From Candidatus Latescibacterota bacterium (GTDB taxonomy: Bacteria > Latescibacterota > UBA2968 > UBA8231): a DNA stretch of 64,000 bases. The notes beneath the pieces were generated by a model. That model did not search any database. It was not told the DNA's origin and was given only the letters and a program-made list of their open reading frames with translations. Below, one piece after another: positions 17,065 to 58,195 of this stretch (position 1 is its first letter; the number at the start of each line of letters is the position of its first letter). The DNA is taken from positions 3,872,001-3,936,000 of the forward strand of contig CBDFJF010000002.1 of assembly GCA_965248265.1 (NCBI GenBank), given 5' to 3'. A program made the position numbers and the translations under genes.

Positions 17065-17093
17065 TGACCCTCGTTCCCTGAATCTGATTACCG
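17065..17093. repeat. 11-7-11 palindromic site
   Basis: TGACCCTCGTT ccctgaa TCTGATTACCG. Confidence 0.65.
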
Positions 17094-17137
17094 GGCACTC
17101 GGCTGAAACTCGTGCGATTGGATTCCTTCCCGCGATT

Positions 17138-17340
17138 CCCGGGACTCCCTGAGGGGGGTCAGACCCCGGATCCGGTTTTCGGAGAGCTTGGACTACCGAT
17201 AAGATGTATTGCCGGTAGTATCGGACCGGTCTTCGCGGGTGACGGCGTGAGCGGGGACGGCCTCCCGCATCATCCCCGGGACTCCCTGAGGGGGTTTACA
17301 CCCCGGATCCGATTTTCGGAGAGCTTGGACTACCGATAAG
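17138..17340. repeat. Two 66-bp direct repeats (17138-17203, 17275-17340), REP-like
   Basis: CCCGGGACTCCCTGAGGGGG..ACCCCGGATCCGRTTTTCGGAGAGCTTGGACTACCGATAAG twice; first copy contains the GGGGTCAGACCCC palindrome. Confidence 0.85.
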
Positions 17341-17478
17341 GCGTTACTCGTTAGTCTGCACGTGAAACTCGATGAGGTTTTCCTCGGTGAGGGGCTAAGG
17401 GTAGACGCAGTGACAGAAGGCCGGCCTTCCGGTGTTGTACAGTAGATAGTGACCATACTGACATCCGGAGGAACACTC

Positions 17479-18183
17479 ATGTCTCCCTCAGCATTCCCAA
17501 TCCATACCCGCCGCTGTCTGCGGCCGTTTGCACTGTCCGTGATCTGCTCCCTCGGACTCTTGACCGCCTGTGGCGACGGGGCCGACTCGAGTACCGGGCC
17601 CGGTGATGATGATTCCGGAGAAATCACGACGCTGCAATCCTCGAAGGCGAGGGCGAGCGCTGCCGGGATCGATGCGGCCGACCTCCATGCACTGGTCGCA
17701 AGCAACACGGAGTTCGCTTTCGGTCTGTACGAATTACTGCGCGCCGAATCAGACGGCAACCTGTTCTATTCTCCATACAGCATCTCCCTGGCGCTGGCAA
17801 TGACCTGGGCCGGCGCGCGGGGCGAGACCGACGCACAGATGGCAGACGTCCTTCGGTTCAGTCTGCCCTCGGAGCGCCTGCATCCGGCCTTCAACGCCCT
17901 CGAACAAGAGCTGGCGAGTCGCGGCCAGAGCGTGCCCACCGATGAAGACGGGACCGGGTTCCAGCTCAGTATCGCTAACTCGATCTGGGGTCAGCGCGAC
18001 TTCGACTTCGAGGACGGCTTTCTGGATCTGCTGGCGGAGCAGTACGGCGCCGGTATGCGTCTCGTCGATTTCATCGGCTCTCCCGATCCATCGCGGCTGC
18101 TGATCAACGACTGGGTCGAACAGCAGACGGAAGACCGTATCAAGGATCTGTTGCCCGAAGGATCGGTGAATGTGTTGACGAGG
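17479..18183 (+). pseudogene. Serpin lipoprotein, 3'-truncated
   Basis: LTAC lipobox, NLFYSPYSISLALAM, ANSIW, INDWVEQQT..IKDLL; similarity stops at VLTR and there is no reactive-centre loop. Confidence 0.85.
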
Positions 18184-18184
18184 G

Positions 18185-19531: not shown

Positions 19532-19547
19532 CAAGACGAATGCCCGT

Positions 19548-21591
19548 GTCGAGTAGCCGAGGCCCTGTCATGCGGCCCCGGCCCTCACCAGATCCCAGCG
19601 AGCAGATTTCCCGCACTGGGCTCCTCCATTGACACGTCTCGCGGTTAGGAAAACCAGATCGATACAACGATCCGGGGTCTTGGGAGTGGATACTGCCGGA
19701 GCAACCCCCGGTAGTATCGCTCCCACGTCAGGCGCGATCGCTGGCTACGTCGATTCAACCACTTGTACCACGCAAACATCGCTGCGGTAGTGAGTTGGGT
19801 TACGCTGTTCCCATTCCCGCTGATACCGAAGTAGTTGATGTGGCCTTGGATGCGCCTTACGAGGTCGGCGTGCTGCTTTGGTATCGGCCAGTTCCGATGG
19901 CGACGGCACAGCCGATACAGGGCCTGCACAGACCGCTTGAGCCGATCACGCCGTGTCTTGCTCGTCAGCACCCATCGACCATTCGGGGCTCTCCGCCAAA
20001 ACCACGTGAAACCCAGAAGGTCGAAGGTACCTGGCCCTTTACCCTTCGTCTGCTCCTGTGGTGGCCGCTCGAAAGGGATGAGCCGGGTCTTGTCTGGCTG
20101 CAGGGTTAGTCCGTATTTGTCCAGCCGCTTGCTCAGCACTGCCCTCACGCGCTCGGCATCCTCCGGCAGTTCGAAACCAATGATGAAATCATCGGCGTAT
20201 CGGACCAACGTTGCTCTACGACGCAACCGTGGTCTGATCTCGACTTCAAACCACTCGTCGAGGACGTGGTGCAGGTAGAGGTTGCCAAGCAGTGGCGACA
20301 AACAGGAGCCCTGTGCGGTGCCTCGGTCCGGCGTAGAAAACTGTTCGCCATCCAGCACCCCAACGTGCAAGCACTTCCCCACGAGCCGGGTGATCGACCC
20401 ATCGGGAATCCGCTCCCGGAGAAACTCCATCAGTTTGGATCGATCCAAACTGTCGAAGTAGGATGTAATATCCGCCTCCAGAATGACCTTCGCTTCCCCG
20501 TTCATCACCACCCGATTCAACACCCGCAGAGCGTCGTGGGCACTGCGTCCCGGACGGTAGCCGTATGAGCAATCCCGAAAGTCCTGCTCGTAGACCGCCG
20601 ACAGCACCTCGCGTAACGCCTCCTGGACAATCTTGTCCTCGAAGCACGAGATGCCAATGGGACGAGTCTTCTTGCCTTTGCCGTCCTTGGGGATGTGGAC
20701 TCTACGAATGGGCTGGTGGCGCCACCGCTTAGTGCGCAGTCGCCGGTGCAGATCCTGCAGATTCCTCTCCAGGTCCTGCCCATACTGCTCCTTGGTCACG
20801 CCATCTACCCCGACTGCAGCGCTCGGCTTTTGATGGTCGAACGCCCTACGCAGAGCTTCCACGTCGATCAGGTGTGCCAGCGAGTGAAACTTGGCCTGCG
20901 GCTCTCGCCTCGCTCTCTCCGCTACCTCCAAAAGTCCCGGTGACATGGACCCCGAAGTCAATGCATCGGTCATGGTGCCCTCCTGAAGTTCGTGTCAACA
21001 CGGACCGCCTTGGCTCCGCCGGGTCCAGCTGCCAACCGTTCCCCGACTTCTCAGCTACTACACGGTCCTCCGACTCCCCATGCTCCATCGGTCGCCGCTC
21101 CGGTTCCCCTCGCAAACGACCTACCACGGTGCCCACGCTTGTTCTTAATCGGCCACGCGTGCGTGTGCTGACGCGTGGCGCGTCGGAGACTTCTTCACCG
21201 GCTCTCCGTAGCACCGGAATCAATCCGTGGAGAGGCTGGGGCCTCCCAGGTTCCTGGGTCATCCTCTGCGAGCGTGCCCTGGTCGTATCACACCCCGCCG
21301 GGGTGTCGTCGCCTTGCCCACATAACGCCGACGACACTGCTGCCTTCAGGTAATCCGGCACCCTCAGCTATCCCGGAACGGTCTCATTTCAGGGCCGCAA
21401 TCCCACAGCCCGCTCGCTCACTGCCCTACTGCTTCGCCTGCCCCGTTACCGGGAACACACGCAAGGGCTCGTTTCTGGCCTGCCGGGCTCAGCTTTGGCC
21501 AGGCGGGTTTTGCACCCGCGGGACGACTAACCGTATTTCAAGAAAGTATCACCTCCTTCTATTCCTACGGACCAGACTTGCCTGGTCGCAT
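19548..21591 (-). mobile_element. Group II intron, apparently complete
   Basis: 5' end ATGCGACC at about 21591; domain V GAGCCCAGTGCGGGAAATCTGCTCGCTGGGATC with AGC triad; domain VI ending CTACTCGAC at 19548; internal RT ORF. Confidence 0.88.
19645..20973 (-). CDS. ltrA: Group II intron reverse transcriptase/maturase, no endonuclease domain
   Basis: GVDG, RPIGI..DKIVQ, SYGYRPGRS, GTAQG..SPLLGNLYL, RYADD, domain X WLNRRSQR. Confidence 0.95.
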   Translation of the reverse strand: MTDALTSGSMSPGLLEVAERARREPQAKFHSLAHLIDVEALRRAFDHQKPSAAVGVDGVTKEQYGQDLERNLQDLHRRLRTKRWRHQPIRRVHIPKDGKGKKTRPIGISCFEDKIVQEALREVLSAVYEQDFRDCSYGYRPGRSAHDALRVLNRVVMNGEAKVILEADITSYFDSLDRSKLMEFLRERIPDGSITRLVGKCLHVGVLDGEQFSTPDRGTAQGSCLSPLLGNLYLHHVLDEWFEVEIRPRLRRRATLVRYADDFIIGFELPEDAERVRAVLSKRLDKYGLTLQPDKTRLIPFERPPQEQTKGKGPGTFDLLGFTWFWRRAPNGRWVLTSKTRRDRLKRSVQALYRLCRRHRNWPIPKQHADLVRRIQGHINYFGISGNGNSVTQLTTAAMFAWYKWLNRRSQRSRLTWERYYRGLLRQYPLPRPRIVVSIWFS

Positions 21592-21651
21592 CCGGACACA
21601 GAGTCCGATGGGCACCAACAGGACCCGATCGGAAACGATCAACGACGATAG
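21592..21651. repeat. Tandem pair of 11-7-11 sites; the first is split by the intron (left part at 19541-19547)
   Basis: TGCCCGT|CCGGA cacagag TCCGATGGGCA and ACCCGATCGGA aacgatc AACGACGATAG. Confidence 0.7.
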
Positions 21652-23679: not shown

Positions 23680-23708
23680 CGGTAATCACTTCTACAGACC
23701 GATGCTCG
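23680..23708. repeat. 11-7-11 site
   Basis: CGGTAATCACT tctacag ACCGATGCTCG; close to the copy at 49957. Confidence 0.7.
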
Positions 23709-23709
23709 G

Positions 23710-27629: not shown

Positions 27630-27639
27630 TCTCAAGGTC

Positions 27640-28953
27640 TGCAGCAACCGGGCTGATAGGTAACAGTCTAAACCGGGTTGATGGGTGACACTATTGTTTT
27701 GATTGAATTCACTCCCGTACGATCATGTCCCTCTCGTCGACGGTGGCTAGGAGGACGGTGTTGAAGTAGATGGCCCAGACGCCGTCGTCGATCTCCTCGA
27801 GACCGATGTCGAGATGCTTGAGAGACTGAGCGATGAAGATGAGCTTGTGGCCGAGGCGTATGGTCCCGGCTCGGGTGACGTGCTTGATGACGAAGTGACC
27901 GGGGTACTCAATGGTCGGCATGCGGCCGGGATAGGGCCGGGGTGATGGGTGGTACCGGGAGCCAGGAGTCTTGCCGTTGAGGGCGTCATGGGGACGCTCG
28001 TCGTTGTAGAGCTGTCGGAAGCGCTGGAAGGATCGCTGCTGGGCGGCCTTGTTGGCGGCGGGTGGCCGACAGGTAGCGGCCTTCAAGGTGCGATGCATGC
28101 GTTCGTGGGCGCCATTTTCCTGCGGCGATGCCGGGCGGATCCGCTGGTGCACGATGCCGAGCCTCATCCACCAAACGTTGAGTCGGCATAGCCCATGCAA
28201 TCCTCTGGAAGCAAAGGGAACGCCGTTGTCGGTGCGAATGGCCTGAGGCAGGCCGAATTCGCGGAAGGCTCTCTCGAAGACCGGACGCGCATGCAAGGTC
28301 TTGATGTCGGGCAGGGCGCGGCAGGTCAGGAGATAGCGAGTGTGCTGATCGCTGATGGTGAGAGGGAAACACCAAACTCCGTTCTTGGTAGGAAATTGGC
28401 CTTTGAAGTCGGCCGTCCACAGATCGTTGGGGTTGTCGGTGGTCGGCGGCACGGCTCCGGGGTGCTGACGTGGGCGTCGTCGTCGTCGCTTCTTCACCAG
28501 GCCTTCGCGCACCAGCAGATCGCCTGCCGTACTGACCGCCGGCCAGGAGCAGATGTGCGGATGTCGAGGCGCCAGCCAGTCCAACAGTTTGTTCGGTCCC
28601 CAATCGGGGTGCCGTGTGCGCGCTCCGAGAATGAGCTCGGCAATCTCTGGCGCCATGCGATGCGGACAGGTGTGGGGCGCGTGACTGCGGTCCTGTAACC
28701 CGGGCACCCCCTCTTCGGCGTGCCGCTGAAGCCACTTGTATCCGGTTTTGCGGCTGATCCCGTATCGCTCGCACAGCTCCGCTCTCGAGTAGTGCCCGCG
28801 CTGATCGTCGGCGATAAATCGCTTACGTTGTTCCATGGGTGCTGTCTCCATCCAGGGCATCGACCAACCTCCCAATTGGGGTTGGTCAAAAAGTAGAAGG
28901 AGTGTCACCCATCAACCCGGTCAGATGTGTTACCAATCTACCCGGTTTGTACC
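27640..28953 (-). mobile_element. IS481-family insertion sequence
   Basis: About 50-bp terminal inverted repeats, each holding two TGTYACCHATCWRCCCGGT units; exact ends uncertain by a few bp; sits between a cassette ORF and its attC. Confidence 0.85.
27709..28860 (-). CDS. IS481-family DDE transposase
   Basis: MPWMET, GISRKTGYKW, WTADFKG, RTDNG, NGAHERMHRTLK. Confidence 0.93.
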   Translation of the reverse strand: MPWMETAPMEQRKRFIADDQRGHYSRAELCERYGISRKTGYKWLQRHAEEGVPGLQDRSHAPHTCPHRMAPEIAELILGARTRHPDWGPNKLLDWLAPRHPHICSWPAVSTAGDLLVREGLVKKRRRRRPRQHPGAVPPTTDNPNDLWTADFKGQFPTKNGVWCFPLTISDQHTRYLLTCRALPDIKTLHARPVFERAFREFGLPQAIRTDNGVPFASRGLHGLCRLNVWWMRLGIVHQRIRPASPQENGAHERMHRTLKAATCRPPAANKAAQQRSFQRFRQLYNDERPHDALNGKTPGSRYHPSPRPYPGRMPTIEYPGHFVIKHVTRAGTIRLGHKLIFIAQSLKHLDIGLEEIDDGVWAIYFNTVLLATVDERDMIVRE

Positions 28954-28962
28954 GTCAACTTC

Positions 28963-29053
28963 ACCTAACAGCGCGTTTTGCGCTGCGGCGCGTTCGCGCC
29001 TTGGCCTTCGCCAACCCGCATTCGCGGGTTCGCAAACCGGCAAACCGTTAGCC
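28963..29053 (+). other. attC site (branched family)
   Basis: ACCTAAC..TTTGCG / CGCAAA..GTTAGCC. Confidence 0.9.
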
Positions 29054-29155
29054 GAAAGCAGGTAGAATTCATTGCGGAAGCGTATCGACTGAACCTTTAG
29101 TTCTCATCAGGGACCAATTTCACGATCCACGCTGTGCTTGACAGGGAGAGATTCT

Positions 29156-29608
29156 ATGTCGGCCATACATCACATTGGACTTCGCGTCTCGACCAGCGGT
29201 GAGCGGGCGAAGGGTTTTTACGACGCAGTGCTGGAGGGCCTGGGATTTTCGTCACCTTCAAGTAACGGGGTGTACCTAAAGGATGATCTGATTGTTCTGG
29301 TTGCTCCCGCAGAGCATAAGGAGAAACATAAACACGGAGCGATCGGTTTGGGCCATCTGGCTTTTTCGGTCGATTCACGGGAAGCAGTGGACACGTTTTA
29401 CAATGAAGTGCTTCTCAACCTGGATGGTGTCACTATCGAAGACCCACCAGTTGACTGCCCGGAGTACGGATACGAGGAGTACTACGCCACATTCTTCTAC
29501 GACGTAGACGGCATCAAACTGGAAGTTGTCTACTCAAAGGGGATTTGCACCTGGGCGGAAGCGGAGCCGGTTCGACCATTCAGGCGAAGTTCAGATCAAG
29601 CTTCGTAG
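29156..29608 (+). CDS. VOC/glyoxalase family protein (cassette)
   Basis: HHIGL, FY..LG, HLAF, YYATFFYDVDGIKLE. Confidence 0.9.
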   Translation: MSAIHHIGLRVSTSGERAKGFYDAVLEGLGFSSPSSNGVYLKDDLIVLVAPAEHKEKHKHGAIGLGHLAFSVDSREAVDTFYNEVLLNLDGVTIEDPPVDCPEYGYEEYYATFFYDVDGIKLEVVYSKGICTWAEAEPVRPFRRSSDQAS

Positions 29609-29644
29609 GGCGCTCACTGCGGCAATGCAGAAGTTATCGCCTTC

Positions 29645-29737
29645 GGCTAACAACACGTTTGCCGCTGCGCCGCCCTTTGGGCGTCTTGGCCTGCGGCAAC
29701 TCGCTTCGCGAGTTCGGCAACCGGTGAAACGTTATCG
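29645..29737 (+). other. attC site (branched family)
   Basis: GGCTAAC..GTTATCG; TTCGGCTAAC complements cassette start GTTAGCCGAA. Confidence 0.9.
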
Positions 29738-29780
29738 GTAATGGGGTGATGCGGTTAGACCAACATGAGAGGAGGACAAA

Positions 29781-30077
29781 ATGTGGGGATGGAAAACAGT
29801 GGAGAGGCAGATCACCCCGAGTATCTCACTCGAGAACGCCCGGGACTTACTGATCGAGGAGGGCTTTTCCGAGCATGTTGCAAACCCAAACCATATCATC
29901 ATGAAGCGTTCCGGGACCCAGCTTGCCGTATCAGGCGAGAAGTTCCCCGTAGAGTTAGCGGTCGCGCAAGCAGAAACAGGTCTCTTTCTCCAGCTTCGAT
30001 ACGATACTTTTGCCCTGTTCGACACCGGAGACCTTGGTCGATTAGCCGACTCACTCGCCGAAAAGCTGTCCCAATAG
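29781..30077 (+). CDS. Hypothetical protein (cassette)
   Basis: RBS AGGAGG; fills the cassette. Confidence 0.75.
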   Translation: MWGWKTVERQITPSISLENARDLLIEEGFSEHVANPNHIIMKRSGTQLAVSGEKFPVELAVAQAETGLFLQLRYDTFALFDTGDLGRLADSLAEKLSQ

Positions 30078-30086
30078 CCCCACAAC

Positions 30087-30174
30087 CGATAACAGCACCG
30101 TTCGCGCGGCGCGCCGTTCGGCGCTTGGCCTTCGGCAACCGCTTCGCGGTTCGCAAACCGGCGAAACGTTATAC
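30087..30174 (+). other. attC site (branched family)
   Basis: CGATAAC..GTTATAC; ACCGATAAC complements GTTATCGGT. Confidence 0.9.
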
Positions 30175-30192
30175 GAAATCCTTTGAGTGATC

Positions 30193-30729
30193 ATGTCAGA
30201 TAATCCCGCTGGCTGGTGTCTTGGCGGTAGCCATCCGAACGACTATGAAGTCGGAGTGGATAGAGATAAGGCTTATAGCGGTGGGGCCAGCGGCTTCATC
30301 AAGTGCACAACACCGAATCCGGCTGGCTTTGGTGCCCTTCATCAAGTATGCAAAGCGGATAAGTTTCTCGGACAACGTCTCAGAATGTCCGCATTCCTCG
30401 CAGCCAAATTCGTACAGAACTGGACAGGTCTCCTGCTCAGGGTGGACGGGATCGCTGGAAACCTATTGAGTTTCGACAACATGCAAGATAGGCCGCTTAG
30501 GGGATCCTTCGATTGGGAGAGTTTCGATGTAGTTCTAGATGTTCCACACGATGGCCATCGCATGACGTTCGGACTTCTCCTTGTTGGCCCCGGACAGGTT
30601 TGGGTTGACAGCTTTGCGTTCGAGCAAGTAGGGAGCGAGGTACCTACTACAGGAAGGGGCAAACGCCGGGCGGAGCTCAACCTTCCAGACGGACCGGTGA
30701 ATCTTGGCTTTGAGGATAGTCAGATGTAG
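30193..30729 (+). CDS. Carbohydrate-binding-like beta-sandwich protein (cassette)
   Basis: GW..GS.P.DY, RVDG..FDNMQDRP.RG..DW, PVNLGFE. Confidence 0.75.
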   Translation: MSDNPAGWCLGGSHPNDYEVGVDRDKAYSGGASGFIKCTTPNPAGFGALHQVCKADKFLGQRLRMSAFLAAKFVQNWTGLLLRVDGIAGNLLSFDNMQDRPLRGSFDWESFDVVLDVPHDGHRMTFGLLLVGPGQVWVDSFAFEQVGSEVPTTGRGKRRAELNLPDGPVNLGFEDSQM

Positions 30730-30769
30730 TGGCTGCGTTGCTGATGAGAATGGTTAGCTCTGCGGCTTC

Positions 30770-30854
30770 GTATAACACGTCCGTGCCCGGCTTCGGGCGT
30801 ACGCCCTTCGCGCAATCCGCTTCGCGGGTTCGGGCGGCGGCGAAAACATTATGC
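30770..30854 (+). other. attC site with variant R' (ATT instead of GTT)
   Basis: GTATAAC..ATTATGC; TTCGTATAAC complements GTTATACGAA. Confidence 0.8.
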
Positions 30855-30895
30855 GAAGGCTTTGACCAAGATGCTATTTTCGTCTAGGAGGCAAG

Positions 30896-31348
30896 ATGCT
30901 CGATTCGTCCGGATTGGCTCCTTACCGCACGGTGCACACGGTTGCCGTGGCGCTATTGGCAACAGTTTGTGCAAGCCTGATCCATGCTGGGGTCCACTGG
31001 CTCCAACCTGAGTCGGCCCACGCTACGAGACTCTCAATGACTCCCATCCTTCCGTTTCTCGCCGCCTCGCTGTTTGCCGGAACCCGCGCCAAATTTAGGC
31101 ACGCACCTGAGGCGTTTCTGTGGCTCAACTCAATTATCTTGTCCGCAATCGGGGTTGGCGCGCGCGTCGGGCATGCAATTCTGAGCGACGGCCATTTCGC
31201 ACATCACATATATGTTGGAATCTCTTGGCCGTTTCTGGCAGTCATCACGTTTCAGTTTGGATTGGCGTCTGCTCTCTTTTTCGGGCTTGGATTTGGTTCG
31301 TGGCGACTATCAAAACGCGTGGGGGTGAATCCGCACCATCCTGACTGA
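30896..31348 (+). CDS. Membrane protein (cassette)
   Basis: RBS AGGAGG; four hydrophobic segments. Confidence 0.7.
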   Translation: MLDSSGLAPYRTVHTVAVALLATVCASLIHAGVHWLQPESAHATRLSMTPILPFLAASLFAGTRAKFRHAPEAFLWLNSIILSAIGVGARVGHAILSDGHFAHHIYVGISWPFLAVITFQFGLASALFFGLGFGSWRLSKRVGVNPHHPD

Positions 31349-31419
31349 GACCTGGTTCAGCCTTCTCGAATCGAGGTGCTGACCATGGCGGAACGACCTG
31401 CGCGAGTTGGGAAGCCATC

Positions 31420-31502
31420 GCATAACACCGTGCCCCCGGCTACGGCGCGTTCGCGCCTTCGCCCAACCGCTACGCGGTTCAGGGACACGAGAACCGTTAT
31501 GA
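31420..31502 (+). other. attC site (branched family)
   Basis: GCATAAC..CGTGCCCC / GGGACACG..GTTATGA. Confidence 0.85.
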
Positions 31503-31723
31503 GAAATGCCCAACTAATACTATCGCTTGTTCCACTGAACTACCAATGGCACGTTTCCATCAGGGGTACTTTATACGTCGACAGAAGAAGCAGATGATCA
31601 CATCAAATGCCGGGCTGGAAAGATGGGTCGCACATGGTATAGAGCGTAGATGAAAGGCATTTTTGCTGGGTCAATGGGATCGATTCCGTTTTTGTAGTTC
31701 AATCACGCGTTTGCAGGCGAAAA

Positions 31724-32197
31724 ATGATGTTGCCGAAAGCATACAAAAGCTTAAACCGCTTTTCAAAATGGATGATGGCTCTATCGCTCCCCTTTGTTAT
31801 TACAGGGTTGGTGTTCGTCGTGCATACCTATTTCTTCCTTCAGCAGGTAGTGCCTGGCAAGGGTACCATCATACAGTTGATGGAAAGACCCAATGATGCT
31901 GGCGACATGCTCTATGCCGCCGTCTTCACTTTTTTCGATGCCGACGGACAACAGCACAAGATCGTCTCGTCGACCGCTAGTAATCCTCCCATTGGTGATG
32001 TGGGGGACGACATTGCGATTCTATATGATCCGAATGATCCTGAAAATGCGGAAGAGGACCGATTTATCAACCTGTGGGGTCCAGCAGTCATTTTTACAGG
32101 ATTGGGATCGTTCTATTTCATCATGTTCTGGAGCGTAGCGTACTTTACCAAACGAAGGATGCAATCTGCGAACCAAGTACGAGAGGCGACGCCCTAG
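31724..32197 (+). CDS. DUF3592-like membrane protein (cassette)
   Basis: TM - SNPP..VGD.I.ILYDPNDP - TM. Confidence 0.8.
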   Translation: MMLPKAYKSLNRFSKWMMALSLPFVITGLVFVVHTYFFLQQVVPGKGTIIQLMERPNDAGDMLYAAVFTFFDADGQQHKIVSSTASNPPIGDVGDDIAILYDPNDPENAEEDRFINLWGPAVIFTGLGSFYFIMFWSVAYFTKRRMQSANQVREATP

Positions 32198-32261
32198 AAT
32201 CGTGCCTCAGTGCTATCGTTAACCATCAACGATTTAAATTTTAGTTCTGTTGGCACGATTT

Positions 32262-32289
32262 GGCACTTCTCATAAAAGCAGTTAAGCGT
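32262..32289 (+). other. Minimal attC/attI hybrid junction
   Basis: GGCACTTCTCATAAAAGCAG|TTAAGCGT; left part complements the cassette start at 31496, right part complements R'' at 32867. Confidence 0.75.
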
Positions 32290-32342
32290 CATAAAGCTAA
32301 TACACTCGTAGAATCCATATAGTCTTTGTTCCATAGGAAGGG

Positions 32343-32874
32343 ATGATAGGATTGAGGCGCGGCGTGGTTACGCTCAGCTCGCACGATCCAGACTGGCTCG
32401 GTTTGGGCGCAGATGCTTGCCGAGATGTCACGAAAGCCTGCGGCGACTTGATGGTTGTTGTTGAGCATGTTGGAAGCACTTCGGTACCTGGTCTGGTCGC
32501 CAAACCCATTATTGATGTTGCTCTCGGCTTTCAGTCCAAGGAACTAGCTCCTGCTTTGATACATTCACTCACCAGTGCTGGGTTCATCTATCGCGGCGAA
32601 GGCGAAGGAAGCGTCGGACTTGTGTTTGTTTGGGAGTCGGAGCCGGATGTGAGAACCATCCATGTGCATGCCGTGCTTCATGCCTCATCTCATTGGGCAG
32701 GACTACATTGTTTTTCGGGATATTCTCCGAGCGGACGCAACAGTCCGCGAGGAGTACGCGCAGCTGAAGCTCATGAATGCCCAAGCGTTCGCCCATGACC
32801 GCAAGGGGTACACCTCAGCGAAAGAGAAGTTTGTTCAGGGCGTACTGTCCCGAAGTGATCTTTACAACGCTTAA
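32343..32874 (+). pseudogene. GrpB-family protein, frameshift near 32696
   Basis: EHVGSTSVPGLVAKPIID then FRD.LR..YAQLK..YTSAK in another frame; extra G in CATTGGGCAG. Confidence 0.85.
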
Positions 32875-32959
32875 CAGCACCGTTCGCGCTGCGCGCCTTT
32901 CGGCGCTTGGCCTTCGGCAACCCGCATGCGCGGGTTCGCAAACCGGCAAAACGTTAAAT
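32869..32959 (+). other. attC site (branched family)
   Basis: GCTTAAC..GTTAAAT; the grpB stop codon lies in R''. Confidence 0.9.
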
Positions 32960-32983
32960 GACATGGGTTGAAGAGATCGCATT

Positions 32984-33499
32984 ATGCCATCAACTGTGCC
33001 GCGCACACGAAAGCAACTTTTGGACGTTGTAGAAACCGGATACGCAGAATTGCAAGCCGAGCTTGCCAAGGGCGACCCGAGACTTGGGAATGTAGTTTGC
33101 GTCGACGACTGGACCGTTAAGGAATTGCTTGCGGTGCGTTGTTGGTGGAGCGAAGCCGTCGTGTCGTGGGTCCGCACTGCACGCGACGGAGGAGAGTTGG
33201 ATCTTCCAGCTCCAGGTTTCAAATGGAACGAAACGCCCAAACTGAACGCCAGCATCGCCCGTCGGTCCAAGCGAGAGACATATCTTGGCGTCAAAAGGCG
33301 CCTTGACAAAGCCTATCAAGATGTGCTGGTGTTAATCGGTGAGTTGTCGGACCGGGAGCTGTGCAAGCCAGGCGTCCTTGGCTGGACAGTAAAATGCGCG
33401 GCATGTCAGTTGATTGCTCTAAACACGGCGCGGCAATACTGTACAGCTCGGACCTTCATTCGACGCACTCTTAAATCCATGCAGGACGCCGTGCACTGA
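32984..33499 (+). CDS. ClbS/DfsB (DinB-like) four-helix bundle protein (cassette)
   Basis: PRTRKQLL, WTVKELL, PAPGFKWNETPKLN, NT..QY. Confidence 0.8.
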   Translation: MPSTVPRTRKQLLDVVETGYAELQAELAKGDPRLGNVVCVDDWTVKELLAVRCWWSEAVVSWVRTARDGGELDLPAPGFKWNETPKLNASIARRSKRETYLGVKRRLDKAYQDVLVLIGELSDRELCKPGVLGWTVKCAACQLIALNTARQYCTARTFIRRTLKSMQDAVH

Positions 33500-33585
33500 A
33501 GAGACGCTTGGATTCCGGATTTATTGACTCTTCATGGACTTGAGAGACAAGGACTGGTGTTGGGTGTCAGGGAACAATGTCCGAC

Positions 33586-33606
33586 GTCATTTAAAAGCAG
33601 ATAACC
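33586..33606 (+). other. Minimal attC/attI hybrid junction
   Basis: GTCATTTAAAAGCAG|AT; GTCATTTAA complements cassette start TTAAATGAC at 32954. Confidence 0.7.
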
Positions 33607-33754
33607 GTCATGGCTATGAGATGCTGATCACATTGATCGAGATGAACTTATTGGGTGAAACCGGTCTCTGGGCACATGCCCTTCCCCTTTTCGCCGCCGA
33701 TGACAACAGGCAGTAAAAATCATTGAGCGGCCCTCCGCAGGCGCTCAAAAATGA

Positions 33755-34363
33755 ATGGAGAGCTTGATGGCAACTACTGAGACAGCGCTACTACTGCTTG
33801 ACCTCCAAAACGAGATTGTCGATCCGAAAGGGAAAGCAGGTGCAGAAGGCCTCGCTGGTCCGGTCGCCGAACGGAAAATTCTTGAACGGACAGCCGACTT
33901 GTTGAAGGCGGTTCGGACGAGAGGAATAGCGGTAATTCATGTGGTGGTCTGTTATCGTCCAGGCCACCCCGAGTTGCCACAGGCGGTGCCATTGGCCGAA
34001 TGGTTCAGAGAGGATGAATTATTGGTTGAAGGGAGTTGGGGAGCCCAGATACATCCCTTGGTCGCACCTTTCCCGAACGAAATTGTTGTAACCAAACGAG
34101 GGATCAGCGCCTTTGCCAGTTCAGACCTAGATGTCGTCCTCAGATCGTTGGGGATTTCGACAATAGTTCTGGCTGGAGTCGCAACGCGCTTTGTCGTTGA
34201 AGGGACGGCGCGAGATGCCTTTGAGAAGGGGTTTTCGTACATAGTGCTGGAAGACTGCTGTGCGAGCAGTAGTCCAGCGATGCATGAATCAGCGATTTCT
34301 TTCATGTCTAATTTTGGGGAGATCACTACCTCAAAGGAATGGTTACAAACCCTCGAGATATAG
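33755..34363 (+). CDS. Isochorismatase-family cysteine hydrolase (cassette)
   Basis: ALLLLDLQN, K..ISAF, GVAT, TARDA. Confidence 0.9.
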   Translation: MESLMATTETALLLLDLQNEIVDPKGKAGAEGLAGPVAERKILERTADLLKAVRTRGIAVIHVVVCYRPGHPELPQAVPLAEWFREDELLVEGSWGAQIHPLVAPFPNEIVVTKRGISAFASSDLDVVLRSLGISTIVLAGVATRFVVEGTARDAFEKGFSYIVLEDCCASSSPAMHESAISFMSNFGEITTSKEWLQTLEI

Positions 34364-34376
34364 GAGATTGCCCGTC

Positions 34377-34481
34377 GTCTAACAGCACGGTGATGCGCTG
34401 CGCCGCATGCGCGGCTTGGCCTTCGGCAACCACTCTTCGCTATGCGCTCAGAGCGGTCCGCAAACCGGCAAGGCGTTACGC
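34377..34481 (+). other. attC site (branched family)
   Basis: GTCTAAC..GCTTGGCCTTCGGCAACC..CGCAAACCGGCAAGGC GTTACGC. Confidence 0.85.
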
Positions 34482-34614
34482 GCAAGCTGAATCACCCGGG
34501 TTTCTCCGGATGCTCGATTGTGTGAGTCACGAAGTCAGCGAGTACTGCGTCCCTGGCAACTGCACTGCGTCTGCTTAGTCCGCAGGGCACTTTCTCTAAG
34601 ATCAAGAGGCAAGA

Positions 34615-35025
34615 GTGACTGAAGACCTCGATGTCCTACGTCAGATACTGCTCGAGTTCTGCGACGCGGAGCGGGTCGAGTTCGATGTCGCCTCGATTGA
34701 GGAATATCCCTCTGCTAGGCCGCCATTCAAGGCTCGCTGGAACGACGATGAAATCGTAGCGATCGAGATTGCCGAAGTCAGTCCCGGAGGCGGTCTTCCA
34801 CCGGTGTACTATGAATACATGGAACTCCCACGTTCGGAGGCGCCCGTGGATTTGCTCCTCCACTGTGAGAGCTGCCCACAGCCTGAGCCGGAACCAGGCG
34901 CAGCCGATAGCTTGAGGCAGTTGGAAGTCGATCTGCTCCTGCGTGGAGGAAGCCGACGGCAACCTTTCAGGAGACTGTGGCTCTACGAGCGGTCGACGAA
35001 GCAAGTATTGGGTTGTTATTACTGA
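34615..35025 (+). CDS. Hypothetical protein
   Basis: RBS GAGG; co-oriented within the array. Confidence 0.6.
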   Translation: MTEDLDVLRQILLEFCDAERVEFDVASIEEYPSARPPFKARWNDDEIVAIEIAEVSPGGGLPPVYYEYMELPRSEAPVDLLLHCESCPQPEPEPGAADSLRQLEVDLLLRGGSRRQPFRRLWLYERSTKQVLGCYY

Positions 35026-35039
35026 GGCGGTAAAACACC

Positions 35040-39178: not shown

Positions 39179-39207
39179 TGACCTGCAGATAATGAGTCCG
39201 ATGGTCA
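39179..39207. repeat. 11-7-11 site
   Basis: TGACCTGCAGA taatgag TCCGATGGTCA. Confidence 0.8.
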
Positions 39208-41735: not shown

Positions 41736-41764
41736 CGACCCGCGGAGTCCTGATCCGATGGTCA
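41736..41764. repeat. 11-7-11 site (direct repeat with 45552)
   Basis: CGACCCGCGGA gtcctga TCCGATGGTCA. Confidence 0.85.
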
Positions 41765-45551: not shown

Positions 45552-45580
45552 TGACCCTCGCAGTCCTGATCCGATGGTCA
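45552..45580. repeat. 11-7-11 site containing the original phosphotransferase stop codon
   Basis: TGACCCTCGCA gtcctga TCCGATGGTCA. Confidence 0.85.
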
Positions 45581-45642
45581 CCTGTTTCGTCGAGCTCGCT
45601 CAAGGTAGTATTTGAATCGCCCCGGGTTTTTCGGAGACTCGG

Positions 45643-46874
<1,232 letters not shown>

Positions 46875-46887
46875 GACTCCAATCCTC

Positions 46888-47856
46888 TCAAGAAATGGAG
46901 CCTCCGGCAACCCCGGGGCGATTCAATTCGTACTTCGCCTGCGTACTCTGGCTCCATTCACGAGTCACGACAGACAGGCGACGTCGGCTTTCCTGCTTTC
47001 CCTCAAGGACCTCCGCTATTCGCACCAGCCAACCCGCGATAGAAATAGACAAACAAGCGCGTATGCGATTCTCGACATCAGGGATATCAGTAACACTCGC
47101 GTAGCTCGATATGACCCACTCCCAGCGTGACTCCGATACATCCATGTAGGTAGCGTGTGTCATCATCTCGGCGATATCGAAGGCAGGATCGCCCCAACCG
47201 CTGTATTCCCAGTCTACTGACCTGATTGACCCATCGTGCCGGATGAAGTTACGTACGTTGTGATCAGCGCGGCAGAGGCCGGCGGGCACACGAGGACATC
47301 CGCCAAAGTTCAGTTCGGCAAGATTCCCAGTGACGTCAAGAACAGGCGTCGGTAGCCGCTTCTCCTGAGCAATTGCGTGTAATCTGCTCGCCTCTCGTGC
47401 GTATTCCTCTGCACCATTCGCATTGTTGTAGCACCCAAGAAGATCGACCGTGGCATGGCGGAGCGCATGGACTGTAGCCAGATACTCAAGCAGATCGGAC
47501 CATTCCTGGTCCTCGCGGGGTGCCGTCTGGATCATGTCGCCGGGCAGCCAAGTCTGGACGACTACCGGTTGCGGGTAGCTGTCCGTGTCCAACAGAATAG
47601 GCTCCGGTGCCAATGCACCACCTGCCTCTTTCAAGGCACAGAGGGCCCCATATTCACGGTTAGCGCGGTCTCGCTCATCACGAATCGTGAACTTGATGGC
47701 GAAATCACCGGAATCGCCACATGCCCTGAATAGCAGATTGTTTGCCCCGCCCGTAACCTGCCCTATATGCCAACCGTGCCAGATCTCTTCGGGACGATCA
47801 CTACCCGCGAGGTAGTCCAACAAGGCTCGAAGCTGTTGTTCGTACACTGCGCTCAT
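46888..47856 (-). CDS. Aminoglycoside/choline-kinase-like phosphotransferase; last 10 codons displaced by IS3
   Basis: GGANN, AIK, D(H)[19 protein letters not shown]; removing the IS restores KYEYYLERARRNR-stop at 45578. Confidence 0.85.
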
Positions 47857-48010: not shown

Positions 48011-48187
48011 ATGCAGAAAATCAACCGTGAACACATCGAGAGAGCCGCCAGGCTCTATAATTCGAACAAGGAAGCTAGCGATGCTCTCGGGATCCACGTG
48101 AGTTCATTTGGGCGGGCCTGCCGGAACTACGGCATAGAAACGCCTGCTGCGAAGAAGCTCAGACAGAGAAGCCGGGCGTCGTTGTAG
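48011..48187 (+). CDS. Small HTH protein
   Basis: SNKEASDALGIHVSSFGRACRNYGI. Confidence 0.7.
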   Translation: MQKINREHIERAARLYNSNKEASDALGIHVSSFGRACRNYGIETPAAKKLRQRSRASL

Positions 48188-48201
48188 CAGTCTGCAGGTC
48201 A
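48173..48201. repeat. 11-7-11 site with the HTH gene stop codon in its spacer
   Basis: CGGGCGTCGTT gTAGcag TCTGCAGGTCA; the right arm is the exact reverse complement of the 39179 left arm. Confidence 0.75.
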
Positions 48202-49956: not shown

Positions 49957-49985
49957 CGGGAATCAGATTGGAAGTCCGATGCTCG
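49957..49985. repeat. 11-7-11 site
   Basis: CGGGAATCAGA ttggaag TCCGATGCTCG. Confidence 0.75.
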
Positions 49986-55144: not shown

Positions 55145-55173
55145 CGGGCATCTCAGTGATATAACGAAGCGCG
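55145..55173. repeat. 11-7-11 site (diverged)
   Basis: CGGGCATCTCA gtgatat AACGAAGCGCG. Confidence 0.5.
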
Positions 55174-55204: not shown

Positions 55205-56413
55205 TTAGTGCAGCTGGTCCCAGTTGCGTCTAAGCAAAGGGCCTCTATTCTGGACGAGGGCGGCCAGAGCTCCGTTGTTGACCGCGACAATGTCACCAAA
55301 GTCCCTCTTATTTCCATGTATTCCGGCAGTGTGCAGCACTGCAAGTACCTGCTCGGCGTCCGCAAGTGCTTGCTGATGCTCCTCCACTGCGGAATCAAAA
55401 CTGACCGAGGCTGTGTCTGTGATCTGCTCGCGCAAGCAGTGCAGATAGTGTCGAAAAGCCTGTTGCTCTCCCAATCCTATGGATGAGGGTTGTGCACCGG
55501 TAAAAAGCGGAGAGACAAATTCGGACTCCATTGATGCTGGGGGTTGCATGGTCGCCAGCACTTGTGTGTTTTGGGCAAGATCTAGGAAGGGTATTGTGAA
55601 TTCAGACAGTGCCTGGGGACAGTAATACCAGGTAGTCCGCTGCCTGATTTCATCTTCATGCACCTGTTGGAACTTCTCGGGAGGAAACGAACGCACGTTC
55701 ATCCAGGTTCCGGAGCAAATTGCGTTTACTCCGGCAGCTGATGCGATGAGCATCTGGTGGTTGCAATACCCAATCACAACCTCAGAGTTTCTCAACCGCA
55801 ATCCCGCACACACGTCAAGAAGATTAGCAAGCCAATTCGGATCTGTCGTAAGGTAGTCTCCCCTCGGATGCTCCCAAACCAAATAGAAACCTGTGTCAGT
55901 CCATGCCTCTGATCGATCCATCAGCAATGCAATCTGCTCATTGTTACGTGCTGCATCAGCAGATAGAGCAATCGTCATGAGAATCGGTATGTCTCTCGAT
56001 TGAGCTCGGGCTTCCTCGAGTATTAGGCTGTGTATTGCAATCCAATCCTCATTCACTTCGTTAGCGAGTACACCCGGCAGGATGAATCTGTCTGTGGCCA
56101 AACGACGGTTTTCGCTCAATAGCTCACTTATCAGGAGAGCCAACCTTGGACCGTCCCAAAAAGTGCCGGTATCGTATTCATCGGGCCAGTAGAAATGAGA
56201 CCGAAGCCTCTCGTGAGAGGCGTGCGGGAGATAGAACTGTGGGTCAAGGAGCACGCGTCCGTTTGGGTGTTTCGTGATATCATCTGCCAACCTGTCTAGT
56301 TGGCCGGAATCGAGATCTCGAGGACTCAAAACTACTGTCCCACCTTCCCACCGCGCGACTAATTCGCGGCAATGTCCCATCATGCCGTGGCCAAACTGTA
56401 GGTATAACTCCAC
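55205..56413 (-). CDS. Hypothetical protein (possible TIM-barrel, beta-protein/sce7725-like)
   Basis: 402-aa ORF coupled to the kinase; LSPRD, LDPQFY, SGTW.N.R.F, HYL motifs. Confidence 0.75.
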   Translation of the reverse strand: MELYLQFGHGMMGHCRELVARWEGGTVVLSPRDLDSGQLDRLADDITKHPNGRVLLDPQFYLPHASHERLRSHFYWPDEYDTGTFWDGPRLALLISELLSENRRLATDRFILPGVLANEVNEDWIAIHSLILEEARAQSRDIPILMTIALSADAARNNEQIALLMDRSEAWTDTGFYLVWEHPRGDYLTTDPNWLANLLDVCAGLRLRNSEVVIGYCNHQMLIASAAGVNAICSGTWMNVRSFPPEKFQQVHEDEIRQRTTWYYCPQALSEFTIPFLDLAQNTQVLATMQPPASMESEFVSPLFTGAQPSSIGLGEQQAFRHYLHCLREQITDTASVSFDSAVEEHQQALADAEQVLAVLHTAGIHGNKRDFGDIVAVNNGALAALVQNRGPLLRRNWDQLH

Positions 56414-56424
56414 CTTCTGTACTC

Positions 56425-57285
56425 CTATTCCTCGATGCCTTCCGCGGCACAGATTTCCTTGACCCAGACGAAAACGCCTTCGGCAGTAGTTGGCCGTTGA
56501 TCTCTGCGTATCTGCGTCAGAGACTGAACTAAGTCACCGAAACTATCCTCTTGCTCCATATCCACGGTGACCCTTGGCAGTCGTTGAGTCTCAACGCGCT
56601 TCAGGACGTCTAGATCATTTCTGGCGCCCAGCCTGAATGGATTCGTGCCAGTCGCACACTCGTAGATGGTTACACCAAGGGCGAAAAGATCTGCTCGGAT
56701 ATCGATGTCCGCTTTCACGTTCCGAAACTGCTCTGGGGGGGCATAGCCGGGAGTGAATTTCCCAAAAGGGTTGCCAGACGGTGTGTGCGAGGTGAGCTCC
56801 AGATGACGCGAGATTCCGAAATCAAGCAACCAGAAATCGCCAACGTCATCATGAATGATGTTTCCTGGTTTAATGTCTCGATGAACGATCTCGTTCTCCT
56901 CGGCAGCAACAAGGGCCTCCAACATTTGGCGAGATAGACGAAGTAGTGCGAGAGCCTGCATTGGGCCAGATGCCGACAGCTCTGCGCTAACCGGGGAACC
57001 AGGGATCCGTTGCTCTAAGAGAAAAGAGCACAGGCCAAACGGGGCGCTGATTTGACCGTACTCGAGAATTGGTGGGACCCGACTTGAACTGACACGCTGA
57101 ACCGCCCGAATCTCCCGCGCCACAGATTCGGCATCCTGTGTCGGCTTGATGATCTTGAGTACGATGTCGCCGTGATCAGGATGAGTTGCCGAAAACACCC
57201 ACTTTTGCCCCCCAGGCGTCAGAGCTGTCACGTTGTCAAGAGAGGGAAACTCGTTCCTCACCCACCCGGCGGACAGCTGCATCAC
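56425..57285 (-). CDS. Hanks-type Ser/Thr protein kinase (soluble)
   Basis: GGQK.V, VLK, RE, HRDIKPGN, DFG, PGYAPPEQ, DLFALG. Confidence 0.95.
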   Translation of the reverse strand: MMQLSAGWVRNEFPSLDNVTALTPGGQKWVFSATHPDHGDIVLKIIKPTQDAESVAREIRAVQRVSSSRVPPILEYGQISAPFGLCSFLLEQRIPGSPVSAELSASGPMQALALLRLSRQMLEALVAAEENEIVHRDIKPGNIIHDDVGDFWLLDFGISRHLELTSHTPSGNPFGKFTPGYAPPEQFRNVKADIDIRADLFALGVTIYECATGTNPFRLGARNDLDVLKRVETQRLPRVTVDMEQEDSFGDLVQSLTQIRRDQRPTTAEGVFVWVKEICAAEGIEE

Positions 57286-58019
57286 AATCTTCCGCTATAC
57301 AGAGCTGCGCGCCAGGAGGACTCGTTAAACACCCAAGAGGCGTGAGAACGAGGGGAGCCAATCCGAGGACTTTTGGATATATCAATTACTCCCGTGCCTG
57401 GACAGATGATGCCGACTCCGTGTGCTTCAGCGACATCCGCAGCTCGCGAAGCGACGGGCGAAGGAACCAAAATGTAGGAGCTGGTGGCGAACCATGTATT
57501 CAAGAACGCCTGTCTTACAGCCGATCGCCAGTCCCCGATCTTGGCCTCAAAAGCCACAATCTGTCTGATGGCGTAGTTGTGGGAAATGCTTCGCGGCTTG
57601 ATAAGACCGCCCGAGATTTGGATTGTGTCTGCGTACAACAGGTGCTCCAGAATCCTGTCGAGGCTTGTTGGAAAAACTGAACGCAATCCCTCGTACCTGC
57701 ATGCCCCACGGCCTGTCAGATAGTGTAACACACGAAGTGTTGACGGATTCAGGATCGCCCGCAGGGCCGACCACCGGCGGGTAACTCCTGGTGACCATAC
57801 AACCACTACCACATCTGGGTAGCCCGAGTCGATCCGCGGTTCACAGAATACAGTCGTTTCGCAGTCTCGCGGAATTCGAACTCGCTGTTCGGCAAGAAAC
57901 CATCGTACCATCTCGGTCTCCGGCCCCTCCCGAGGGCGTCGGAACGCCATCCCAAACTCTTCTCCATGCTCGTAGTCAATAATCCATGGCTTCGTTGCCG
58001 AATCCATCACTTGGACCAA
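57282..58019 (-). CDS. PD-(D/E)XK-like protein with inserted HTH-like segment
   Basis: E..E...GYPD..AFEAK..W..A..QA..N..F. Confidence 0.7.
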   Translation of the reverse strand: MVQVMDSATKPWIIDYEHGEEFGMAFRRPREGPETEMVRWFLAEQRVRIPRDCETTVFCEPRIDSGYPDVVVVVWSPGVTRRWSALRAILNPSTLRVLHYLTGRGACRYEGLRSVFPTSLDRILEHLLYADTIQISGGLIKPRSISHNYAIRQIVAFEAKIGDWRSAVRQAFLNTWFATSSYILVPSPVASRAADVAEAHGVGIICPGTGVIDISKSPRIGSPRSHASWVFNESSWRAALYSGRL

Positions 58020-58137
58020 AACCCGACTCCCCTTCTACATAGTGAGAGCTGCTGTGTACCTCGAATATACCCCGGCTCGTGTTTCCTTGACAATGAAATA
58101 CAAACTGCTCGTACCAGCGCAGATCGCCACTTCTGGC

Positions 58138-58195
58138 CGACCGTCAGTCGAACATCCGATGCTCGGCGAGCATCGTTGTCTTGCAACGACAATCC
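58138..58195. repeat. Tandem pair of sites (11-6-11 and 11-7-11) next to the tyrosine recombinase
   Basis: CGACCGTCAGT cgaaca TCCGATGCTCG g CGAGCATCGTT gtcttgc AACGACAATCC. Confidence 0.7.

Follow-up and report, generated by a model that had tools for sequence, protein, structure and literature searches.

Integrons are, to our knowledge, the only well-understood platform that files unrelated genes into long chromosomal arrays, and modules delimited by dif sites form a second, poorly understood one. The attC sites of integrons are folded, 57–141 bp long, and serve as homing targets of group IIC-attC introns. Here we describe a locus of comparable arrangement in the genome of a Candidatus Latescibacterota bacterium (7.32 Mb, G+C 59.6%, two contigs termed C1 and C2; genome label G000). 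In a stretch of 64,000 nucleotides (C2:3872001-3936000; the window, to which positions without a contig name refer), 29-bp elements made of two inverted 11-bp arms around a 7-bp spacer lie between genes, and a gene for a Xer-like tyrosine recombinase adjoins them. Our reading, to which we assign a probability of roughly 0.6, is that the elements are core recombination sites of lineage-specific Xer-like recombinases and frame ordered gene modules.

The arrangement resembles an integron, yet it is distinct from one. In both, co-oriented sites between small, mostly unrelated modules form an array with a tyrosine recombinase gene at one end, the arrays are large, sedentary and chromosomal, and a group II intron appears to home into the sites. 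In contrast to integrons, the sites here are 29-bp palindromes, apparently of the double-strand type and without selection for folding, the recombinase is not IntI, and the genes lie on either strand. Moreover, about 20 site types follow each other in a fixed order, which has no integron counterpart.

With Xer/dif and the pdif modules of Acinetobacter, the locus shares two 11-bp arms around a centre, mobile modules of one to few genes delimited by such sites, and a Xer-like recombinase. The centre is 7 bp here and 6 bp in dif, a 28-bp site with a XerC and a XerD arm. The pdif modules use the host XerC/XerD pair and alternate C/D and D/C sites, whereas here a dedicated recombinase gene lies in the array, all the sites are direct and the order of types is fixed. 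The minimal two-domain recombinase, the minimal sites and the asymmetric spacer that sets polarity recall Cre/lox, and identical arms with different spacers are the principle of recombinase-mediated cassette exchange with heterospecific lox sites. However, the lox sets are engineered, while the set described here is natural, with about 20 spacers in fixed order and a dependence on the spacer that would follow by analogy. Ordered sets of heterospecific sites are known to us only as engineering (lox or FRT). The picocyanobacterial tycheposon islands are likewise marine and combine Xer-like integrases, site-specific insertion of cargo and scattered att repeats; in the available part of that report, however, the repeats are partial tRNA genes, each integrase lineage has one target, and no ordered multi-type scaffold is described (10.1101/2020.12.28.424599). 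A literature search, covering mainly listings and abstracts outside subscription journals, found no description of such arrays. What this genome presents is a third design: its recombinase differs, its sites are of the double-strand type, and its site types are ordered.

The 29-bp sites and their clusters in the genome

The original prediction had listed 22 copies of a palindromic motif in the window, 18 of them as main copies and four as weaker ones, and read them as the core sites of a tyrosine recombinase. Its consensus, at up to 3 mismatches, gave 3 matches in the window and 0 in 100 shuffles. Printed side by side, the 22 copies formed a degenerate family in which the right arm (TCCGATGGTCA or TCCGATGCTCG) was better preserved than the left. 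We trained a weight matrix on 13 window copies and then refined it; most of the high scores of the unrefined matrix were, unexpectedly, on the other contig, C1. After refinement, the consensus was YGNCCNTCRNN-N7-TCCGATGGTCR, and the arm consensus common to the site types was YGNCCNTCNNN / NNNGATGGNCR. The refined matrix found 95 genome positions at 18 bits or more, compared with 10 and 13 in two third-order Markov genomes, and 87 sites at 20 bits or more, compared with 4 and 4. By the shuffles as well as by the matrix scan the motif family is therefore real and far beyond chance, and eleven of the listed copies were strong (18.8–29.5 bits; Table 1).

The remaining copies fared differently. The one given as 19541/21592 proved to be a real site, interrupted by a group II intron of 2.07 kb and with its true register at 21586. 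That at 58167 scored moderately (12.6 bits) and forms, together with 58138, a double site with a conserved counterpart downstream of one of the recombinase paralogues. The copy at 22705 is a half-site at best, with a good right arm only (3.7 bits), while 21623, 22197 and the four copies already called weaker (47880, 48592, 48646 and 54990) scored as background (at most 2.6 bits). In all, 8 of the 22 listed copies are not supported as sites. Copies had been reported missing from the intergenic spaces of the first 16.8 kb, and no match of 11 bits or more was present anywhere in positions 1-17064. The placement between genes also held, as all eleven strong sites and the double site fall between the open reading frames (ORFs) of the window, in gaps of just 55–70 bp within the minus-strand gene run at 35.7–45.5 kb. 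Long frames are avoided: of 90 sites, 8 fall inside an open frame of at least 300 codons, whereas 63% of 3000 positions drawn at random from the same regions do.

The spacer is 7 bp in every matrix site and 6 bp only at the recombinase-proximal site 58138. The left arms vary (80 distinct sequences among 90 sites), while the 7-mer spacers stay exact. Complementarity between the arms equals the expectation from column composition at all 11 positions (at positions 3/27, for example, 34 observed against 31.6 ± 3.9), and just 5–8 of the 11 arm positions are complementary in most sites. The lack of arm covariation disfavours folding of the attC, REP or terminator kind, and fits 29-bp elements of the double-strand type with two half-sites that would be bound independently. 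Consistent with the earlier claim, elements 29 bp long whose arms do not covary are not attC sites. Hairpin repeats resembling REP/BIME elements or terminators, acting as RNA or single-strand DNA, would likewise be palindromic, intergenic and often 10–35 bp from gene ends, and entry of a group II intron would suit them, since some intron classes recognise stem-loops. We nevertheless consider such repeats very unlikely. Besides the absence of covariation and the low complementarity, no T run follows the sites in the flanks that were read, and the confinement to three regions, the strict co-orientation and the ordered types do not fit dispersed repeats.

The spacers are strand-specific, the counts of word and reverse complement being 8 and 0 for GACAGAA, 7 and 0 for TCCATAC, and 6 and 0 for TCCTATG. 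Judged by the spacer word, all sites of one array are co-oriented, regardless of the strand of the genes. An asymmetric, strand-specific spacer therefore sets the polarity of the site. Inverted arms, an asymmetric overlap and a recombinase with core-binding and catalytic domains only were all found, as in simple core sites of tyrosine recombinases; binding and cleavage are predicted. The proposed core-site anatomy is thus supported, and the sites adjoin a dedicated recombinase family that is not IntI.

At 16 bits or more, 90 of the 113 matches in the genome were confined to three regions (Table 1), with a median site spacing of 2.3–2.8 kb. The array system is rare among the genomes searched. 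A covariance model (R1) gave 0–6 matches in each of 60 other genomes of the family (E ≤ 1) versus 103 in this genome, and at most 4 in each of 150 genomes of the phylum (E ≤ 0.3) versus at least 47 here; arrays were found in neither set. In viral contigs, the strict site pattern occurred at 75 loci, one place each, with no array. A genome of another genus (G026) contains three sites with known words (GACAGAA once and TCCATAC, in reverse, twice) and one near match.

Two kinds of sites outside the arrays were also observed. A lone 29-mer with a TCCATAC-type spacer at C2:1851670-1851698 is identical to copies near 1873176 and 2004761 of G026:C10. GTGATAT sites (window 55114-55173; C1 177612-177671; C2 1145209-1145268) are directly preceded by a second site-like palindrome (GGGAATCAGTCAAAC...GATG.CTC); these doublets, two of which lie outside arrays, resemble the double site 58138-58195.

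Order of the spacer types and contents of the slots

About 20 spacer words cover 83 of the 131 positions that score 15 bits or more. The order of the first half is (CCCTGAA) TGCCCAC, CAGGTAA, TTCACAA, CACAGAG, GACAGAG/GACAGAA, TCTACAG, TCCTATA/G, TCCATAC, CTATCAG, and that of the second half is TAATGAG, TGCTCAG, GTCTCAA, GTCCTGA, GTAGCAG, TTGGAAG, TTGATGG, GTGATAT, GTCTTGC, followed by the recombinase gene. For the tests, C1 651961-702796 alone supplied the reference order. The window array, with 11 sites of shared type, gave 53 concordant pairs and 1 discordant pair (p ≤ 1e-5). The seven shared-type sites of C1 705180-730822 gave 21 concordant and 0 discordant pairs (p = 2e-4), and the four of C2 3.03-3.06 Mb gave 6 and 0 (p = 0.04). 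Among 30 sites of C1 741-1020 kb, 7 descents were observed, compared with 14 ± 1.6 (minimum 8) upon permutation (0/20,000). On two overlapping marine metagenome contigs (L097 and L098), whose recombinase is only 52% identical, the words CCCTGAA, TGCCCAC, CACAGAG and TCTACAG keep both this order and their polarity with respect to the recombinase.

The contents of the slots were compared all against all at E 1e-10, using ORFs of at least 70 amino acids (aa) from 92 slots, after 16 proteins of insertion sequences (IS), introns and large families had been dropped. Slots shared a homologue in 8 of the 126 pairs that agree in left-site type, in 1 of the 134 that agree in right-site type and in 68 of the 3949 that agree in neither. 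The site scaffold is conserved, and the slot content mostly is not. The modules of the window encode a truncated serpin, methyltransferases, a GNAT acetyltransferase, CBM9 and WD40 proteins, an adenylate cyclase, a PQQ-propeller protein, kinases, an esterase and a pyridoxal phosphate enzyme.

We compared the genome with itself for recent duplicates between arrays and observed homology breakpoints at the sites. A 1497-bp module copy (window 35684-37179 and C1 762434-763929, 98.4% identical) runs across site 37141 from its left arm through the spacer and breaks off about 4 nucleotides (nt) into the right arm. The copy 41203-41556 (C1 767394-767747, 99%) starts within the left arm of site 41197, and the copy 23690-23817 (C1 778468-778594) starts at the spacer of site 23680. 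At least 11 more ends of duplicates, on C1 and C2, fall no more than 14 nt from the centre of a site. Sites with the same spacer are mostly alike over the site only (about 25–30 bp), and their flanks differ. The claim that the sites stack modules independently of integrons is borne out as far as modules of one to few genes and duplicate ends at the sites are concerned; however, the interval is composite, and its sites do not form a simple stack.

An alternative source of the ordered types is the tandem amplification of an ancient block of about 20 genes whose conserved intergenic motifs (operators, insulators or nucleoid sites) bind proteins, so that the order of motifs arose from duplication and no recombination took place. 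Collinear order and the tandem runs on C1 are expected from such an amplification, the homologues are mildly enriched in same-type slots (8/126 versus 68/3949), and a small gene with a ParB-HTH domain accompanies two of the C1 recombinases. However, at E 1e-10 no protein is common to the two slots in 118 of the 126 same-type pairs, yet the recombinase paralogues stay 80% identical, and the recent copies (98–99%) lose homology at the edges of the spacer. The orientation of the sites is, in addition, independent of gene strand (plus-strand genes at 22–27 kb, minus-strand genes at 35–48 kb), and their architecture equals that of a recombinase core site and of the att class of the relatives. We therefore regard tandem amplification as quite improbable.

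A spacer shared by neighbouring sites was also considered as a signature of single insertions. Only the pairs 41736/45552, C1 711715/715056 and C1 682220/700336 had one, which is about the number expected by chance, and the signature was rejected as a general rule.

The recombinase family and its relatives at tRNA genes

The recombinase of the window consists of a SAM-like core-binding domain and a catalytic domain only, and such a two-domain protein fits minimal sites. In its translation, the catalytic Arg, Lys, His-x-x-Arg, His and Tyr motifs are intact at the invariant columns. The top NCBIfam match is XerA_Arch at 122.5 bits (cut-off 220), and the XerC and XerD models gave 93.8 and 93.6 bits (cut-offs 335 and 330), so that the protein is neither of these two. 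The nearest solved structures are Xer-like proteins (E 3e-17 and weaker). Among 5.8 billion proteins, 137 relatives, mostly metagenomic, were found at E 1e-3, with names that go no further than 'integrase'. All four paralogues in the genome lie in or at site clusters (Table 1). The polarity of the sites flips with the strand of the recombinase: the window gene is on the minus strand and its sites are on the plus strand, and the locus at C2 3.03 Mb is the mirror image. A double site 50–110 bp past the stop codon is common to the window recombinase and the paralogue C2:3033502-3034338, and GTCTTGC sites at C1 702796 and C2 3034403 also adjoin recombinase genes.

In 12 loci, the matrix matched a tRNA-Arg gene located 30–170 bp downstream of an integrase with 28–37% identity. 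In each case the 7-bp spacer coincided exactly with the anticodon loop, and the inner arms with the anticodon stem. Att sites centred on the anticodon form an established class, which accounts for 2083 of 3919 islands in Islander (PMC4383910). The array sites have the stem (5)-loop (7)-stem (5) geometry of this class, with flanks, and distant homologues of their recombinase lie by tRNA-Arg; unlike the class, they are outside tRNA genes, symmetrised and multiplied to about 90 with three intact integrase genes. Judged from their arms and geometry, they look like symmetrised descendants of an anticodon-arm att site rather than tRNA fragments. None of them lies within the 57 tRNA genes found by ARAGORN, of which only one (tRNA-Met) reaches 18 bits. 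The flanks of the array sites contained neither T-arm nor acceptor sequence, and the available flanks of the 12 tRNA-Arg-linked loci no displaced tRNA fragment. The T at loop position 2, universal in anticodon loops, is present in just 48% of the sites; the spacers were for this reason rejected as true anticodon loops, and the sites are tRNA-like in geometry and arms only.

Across the loci that encode relatives, the matrix found nothing convincing in 80 loci on genome contigs. In 80 metagenome loci, L097 and L098 alone had strong sites; apart from the tRNA-Arg matches, the others were weaker single sites in L092, L111 and L112. Around homologues of 34–46% in the related genomes G021, G007, G027, G019, G012 and G006 (up to 20 kb per side), no recurrent family of 11-(6-8)-11 inverted repeats was found. 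By eye, two of these loci show a tRNA T-arm near the integrase.

Could the arrays be fossil islands that were left by serial integrations at a tRNA att site, with the sites as inert attL/attR scars and most of the integrases lost? The tRNA-Arg genes beside the distant relatives and the mimicry of the anticodon arm are in line with this, and a tRNA-Glu gene (C1:646463-646538) lies about 2.8 kb from where the C1 array starts and about 0.7 kb to the left of its first, intron-split site. On the right-hand side of the window recombinase, a resolvase, a XRE regulator and a terminase-small-subunit-like gene stand as in an integrative element or satellite, and the recombinase may be the edge of such an element. 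An 18-kb segment with an intact recombinase gene is flanked by two TTGATGG sites (C1 682220 and 700336), the pattern expected from an integrated circle bearing one TTGATGG site. Tycheposons are described as having partial tRNAs scattered through islands (10.1101/2020.12.28.424599). However, serial integration at one att site should leave a single overlap word, not about 20 ordered words common to independent arrays and to the contig with the 52% recombinase. The 29-bp palindromes are without further tRNA sequence, and none is in a tRNA gene. In a tandem array of islands each would have its own integrase, whereas the genome has 3 intact, 1 interrupted and 1 fragmentary gene for about 90 sites; the Islander survey lists only 4 tandem arrays of at least 3 islands among 3919 islands (PMC4383910). 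Scars free of selection should also not retain exact 7-mers while the arms vary. Fossil islands are thus an unlikely explanation.

The gene surroundings of the recombinases showed further features. To the right of the window recombinase, all on the minus strand, are the serine resolvase (59252-59839), the XRE-type HTH gene (59977-60318) and the terminase-small-subunit-like gene (61272-61883). The ParB-HTH-domain gene (143–145 aa) lies upstream of two C1 recombinases (C1:704087-704518 and C1:688151-688588; L174:4087-4518 and L173:8151-8588), overlaps the start of one of them and is absent beside the window copy. The anticodon arm of the tRNA-Glu gene C1:646463-646538 is unlike the sites.

In the model of recombination sites framing ordered modules, which we favour, each of the two inverted 11-bp arms would bind one recombinase monomer, and strands would be exchanged in the asymmetric 7-bp overlap. 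The recombinases are encoded at the end of, or inside, the arrays. The array itself would be a polar scaffold of up to about 21 types with their own overlap words, in a fixed order that ends with GTCTTGC and a recombinase gene, and the slots between neighbouring sites hold mostly unrelated modules of one to few genes. The tyrosine recombinases lambda Int, Cre, Flp and XerCD need matching overlaps. If the same holds here, only sites of the same type would recombine; the array would thereby be shielded from internal deletion, and a module or a run of modules could enter, leave or be swapped wherever another array or incoming DNA carries the matching site. The sites and their clustering, the association with the recombinase, the order of types, the breakpoints at the spacers and the varying slot content are observations, whereas binding, the positions of cleavage, the dependence on overlap identity and present-day activity are what we infer.

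A more tentative extension, to which we give somewhat less than even odds, is that the arrays are a natural cassette-exchange scaffold with about 20 incompatible addresses in an order conserved across arrays and organisms, slot-wise swaps between arrays or genomes and no self-deletion, descended from the anticodon-arm att site of a tRNA-integrating integrase and forming a third kind of cassette platform, of independent origin, beside integrons and dif modules. If the overlap words act as addresses, the stability of a 362-kb array of direct repeats would be explained. On the same condition, the design would offer a testable route from tRNA-targeting integrases to cassette platforms, and it would provide about 20 orthogonal sites for one small recombinase, useful in genome engineering.

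Several observations weigh against the favoured model. The scores of the window sites are partly circular since the matrix was trained there, although those of the C1 array, the loci of the relatives and the simulations are not. The distal C1 runs are truncated at arbitrary types, which needs deletions that the model does not predict. Adjacent sites share a spacer only occasionally (41736/45552 in the window); since neighbours are rarely matched, excision of single modules by matched neighbours cannot be the usual reaction. Some types differ by one base (TCCTATA/TCCTATG and GACAGAG/GACAGAA), which makes strict heterospecificity uncertain. The adjacent double sites (58138/58167, and one before 55145) are unexplained by the model, and two of the five recombinase copies are defective, one by an internal TGA and one as a fragment. 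Finally, no excision or circle junction was found at any site in four assembled-contig runs over 35600-45650. These four runs of one sample contain the stretch, and two marine metagenomes contain 6–9% of its words, all as assembled contigs. Assembled contigs break at repeat boundaries; two of them overlap exactly in 37133-37162, on site 37141, which is neutral as to excision.

Composition of the window

The features are collected in Table 1. The original prediction had missed three things: the attC array in the site-free gap at 23.7–37.1 kb, the 362-kb array on C1 and the conserved order of the spacer types.

Table 1. Arrays, recombinase genes, sites and mobile elements (window positions unless a contig is named)
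Feature	Position	Strand	Remarks
Site array	C1 651,961-1,014,347		74 sites; span 362 kb
Site array of the window			11 sites; span 38 kb
Site array	C2 3,039,422-3,061,199		5 sites; span 22 kb
Xer-like tyrosine recombinase, 283 aa	58247..59098	-	Pfam Phage_integrase + Phage_int_SAM_1
Recombinase paralogue	C2:3033502-3034338	+	81% identity, intact
Recombinase paralogue	C1:685712-686521	-	80% identity, intact
Recombinase paralogue	C1:703260-704069	-	81% identity, one internal TGA
Recombinase paralogue	C1:731073-731336	-	84% identity over matched part, fragment
Site, spacer CCCTGAA	17065..17093	+	23.1 bits; intergenic; first of window array, 248 bp past NfeD/ClpP-like gene 15648-16817
Split-site remnant, spacer CACAGAG + right arm	21586..21614	+	11.2 bits, intron end replacing left arm; outer left arm 19541-19546 beyond intron
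Site, spacer GACAGAA	22166..22194	+	24.3 bits
Site, spacer TCTACAG	23680..23708	+	22.1 bits; C1 homology begins at spacer
Site, spacer CTATCAG	37141..37169	+	25.7 bits; C1 module copy ends in right arm
Site, spacer TAATGAG	39179..39207	+	26.2 bits; 55-bp gap between two minus-strand genes
Site, spacer GTCTCAA	41197..41225	+	24.8 bits; C1 copy starts within left arm
Site, spacer GTCCTGA	41736..41764	+	26.3 bits
Site, spacer GTCCTGA	45552..45580	+	29.5 bits; same word as 41736, pair flanks one 1248-aa WD40 gene
Site, spacer GTAGCAG	48173..48201	+	20.3 bits
Site, spacer TTGGAAG	49957..49985	+	28.6 bits
Site, spacer GTGATAT	55145..55173	+	18.8 bits
Double site: 6-bp-spacer site (58138), then GTCTTGC site with degenerate recombinase-side arm	58138..58195	+	52 bp past recombinase stop codon
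Classical integron-type cassette array, no integrase nearby	28958..35685	+	about 8 attC, 85-105 bp, xxTAAC...GTTAxxx ends, between small ORFs
IS481-family insertion sequence (transposase 27709-28908)	27638..28957	-	Pfam rve/LZ_Tnp_IS481; abuts first attC
IS3-family insertion sequence	45610..46927	-	Pfam rve/HTH_21; Rfam ALIL frameshift pseudoknot; 30 bp from site 45552
Group II intron in site arm (reverse transcriptase/maturase ORF 19645-20973)	19536..21611	-	Pfam RVT_1; NCBIfam TIGR04416 309.7 bits; Rfam group-II-D1D4-6 at 21283-21512

The ORFs of the attC array, on the plus strand, encode a glyoxalase, GrpB, DUF1706 and an isochorismatase. The same type of attC flanks the cassettes (C1:1756870-1758880) by an IntI-like gene on C1 (C1:1754213-1755118, 301 aa), which scored 239.6 bits with TIGR02249, just below the cut-off of 265. 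An IntI-like gene and genuine attC arrays, one of them inside the interval, are thus present in this genome, as would be required if the 29-bp sites were divergent attC sites served by that integrase. We find this hardly credible. The genuine attC sites, with their length and TAAC...GTTA ends, are quite different, and the 29-bp sites have neither paired R and L boxes (RYYYAAC...GTTRRRY) nor selection for folding. The adjoining recombinase, moreover, matches TIGR02249 at only 74.3 bits, in two stretches (cut-off 265), and PRK15417 at 31.9 (cut-off 435). The last attC of the window array (35607-35685) is without a clear GTT end where it adjoins the duplicated PQQ module.

Seven more copies of the IS481 element at 98–100% identity and one partial copy are present in the genome, and the IS3 element has 13 other copies. 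The group II intron is present in six copies: the one in the window, four on C1 (647273-649331, 655002-657077, 695941-697986 and 725094-727136) and one on C2 (783713-785762). Five of the six interrupt a site arm at one and the same position; one flank of the intron is the outer YGNCCR, and the opposite flank holds a known spacer word together with the right arm. The spacers are CACAGAG (two), CCCTGAA (one) and GTAGCAG (two). By analogy with introns that target attC, the insertion looks like site-directed homing. From the copy at C1 647273 it follows that a CCCTGAA site near 649.3 kb opens the C1 array.

At the left end of the window array, the last 124 bp of the NfeD/ClpP-like gene (16694-16817) recur, inverted and 93.5% identical, at C2:3031796-3031919, at a distance of 1.6 kb from the recombinase paralogue of C2 3.03 Mb. 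It may reflect an earlier inversion of about 0.86 Mb between the two C2 arrays, which have opposite orientations. Just inside the first module is a 69-bp direct repeat (17135-17203 and 17272-17340, 92.8% identical). Of the 370 Pfam positions, the serpin ORF of this region (17449-18243) covers only the first 153, and it is probably truncated.

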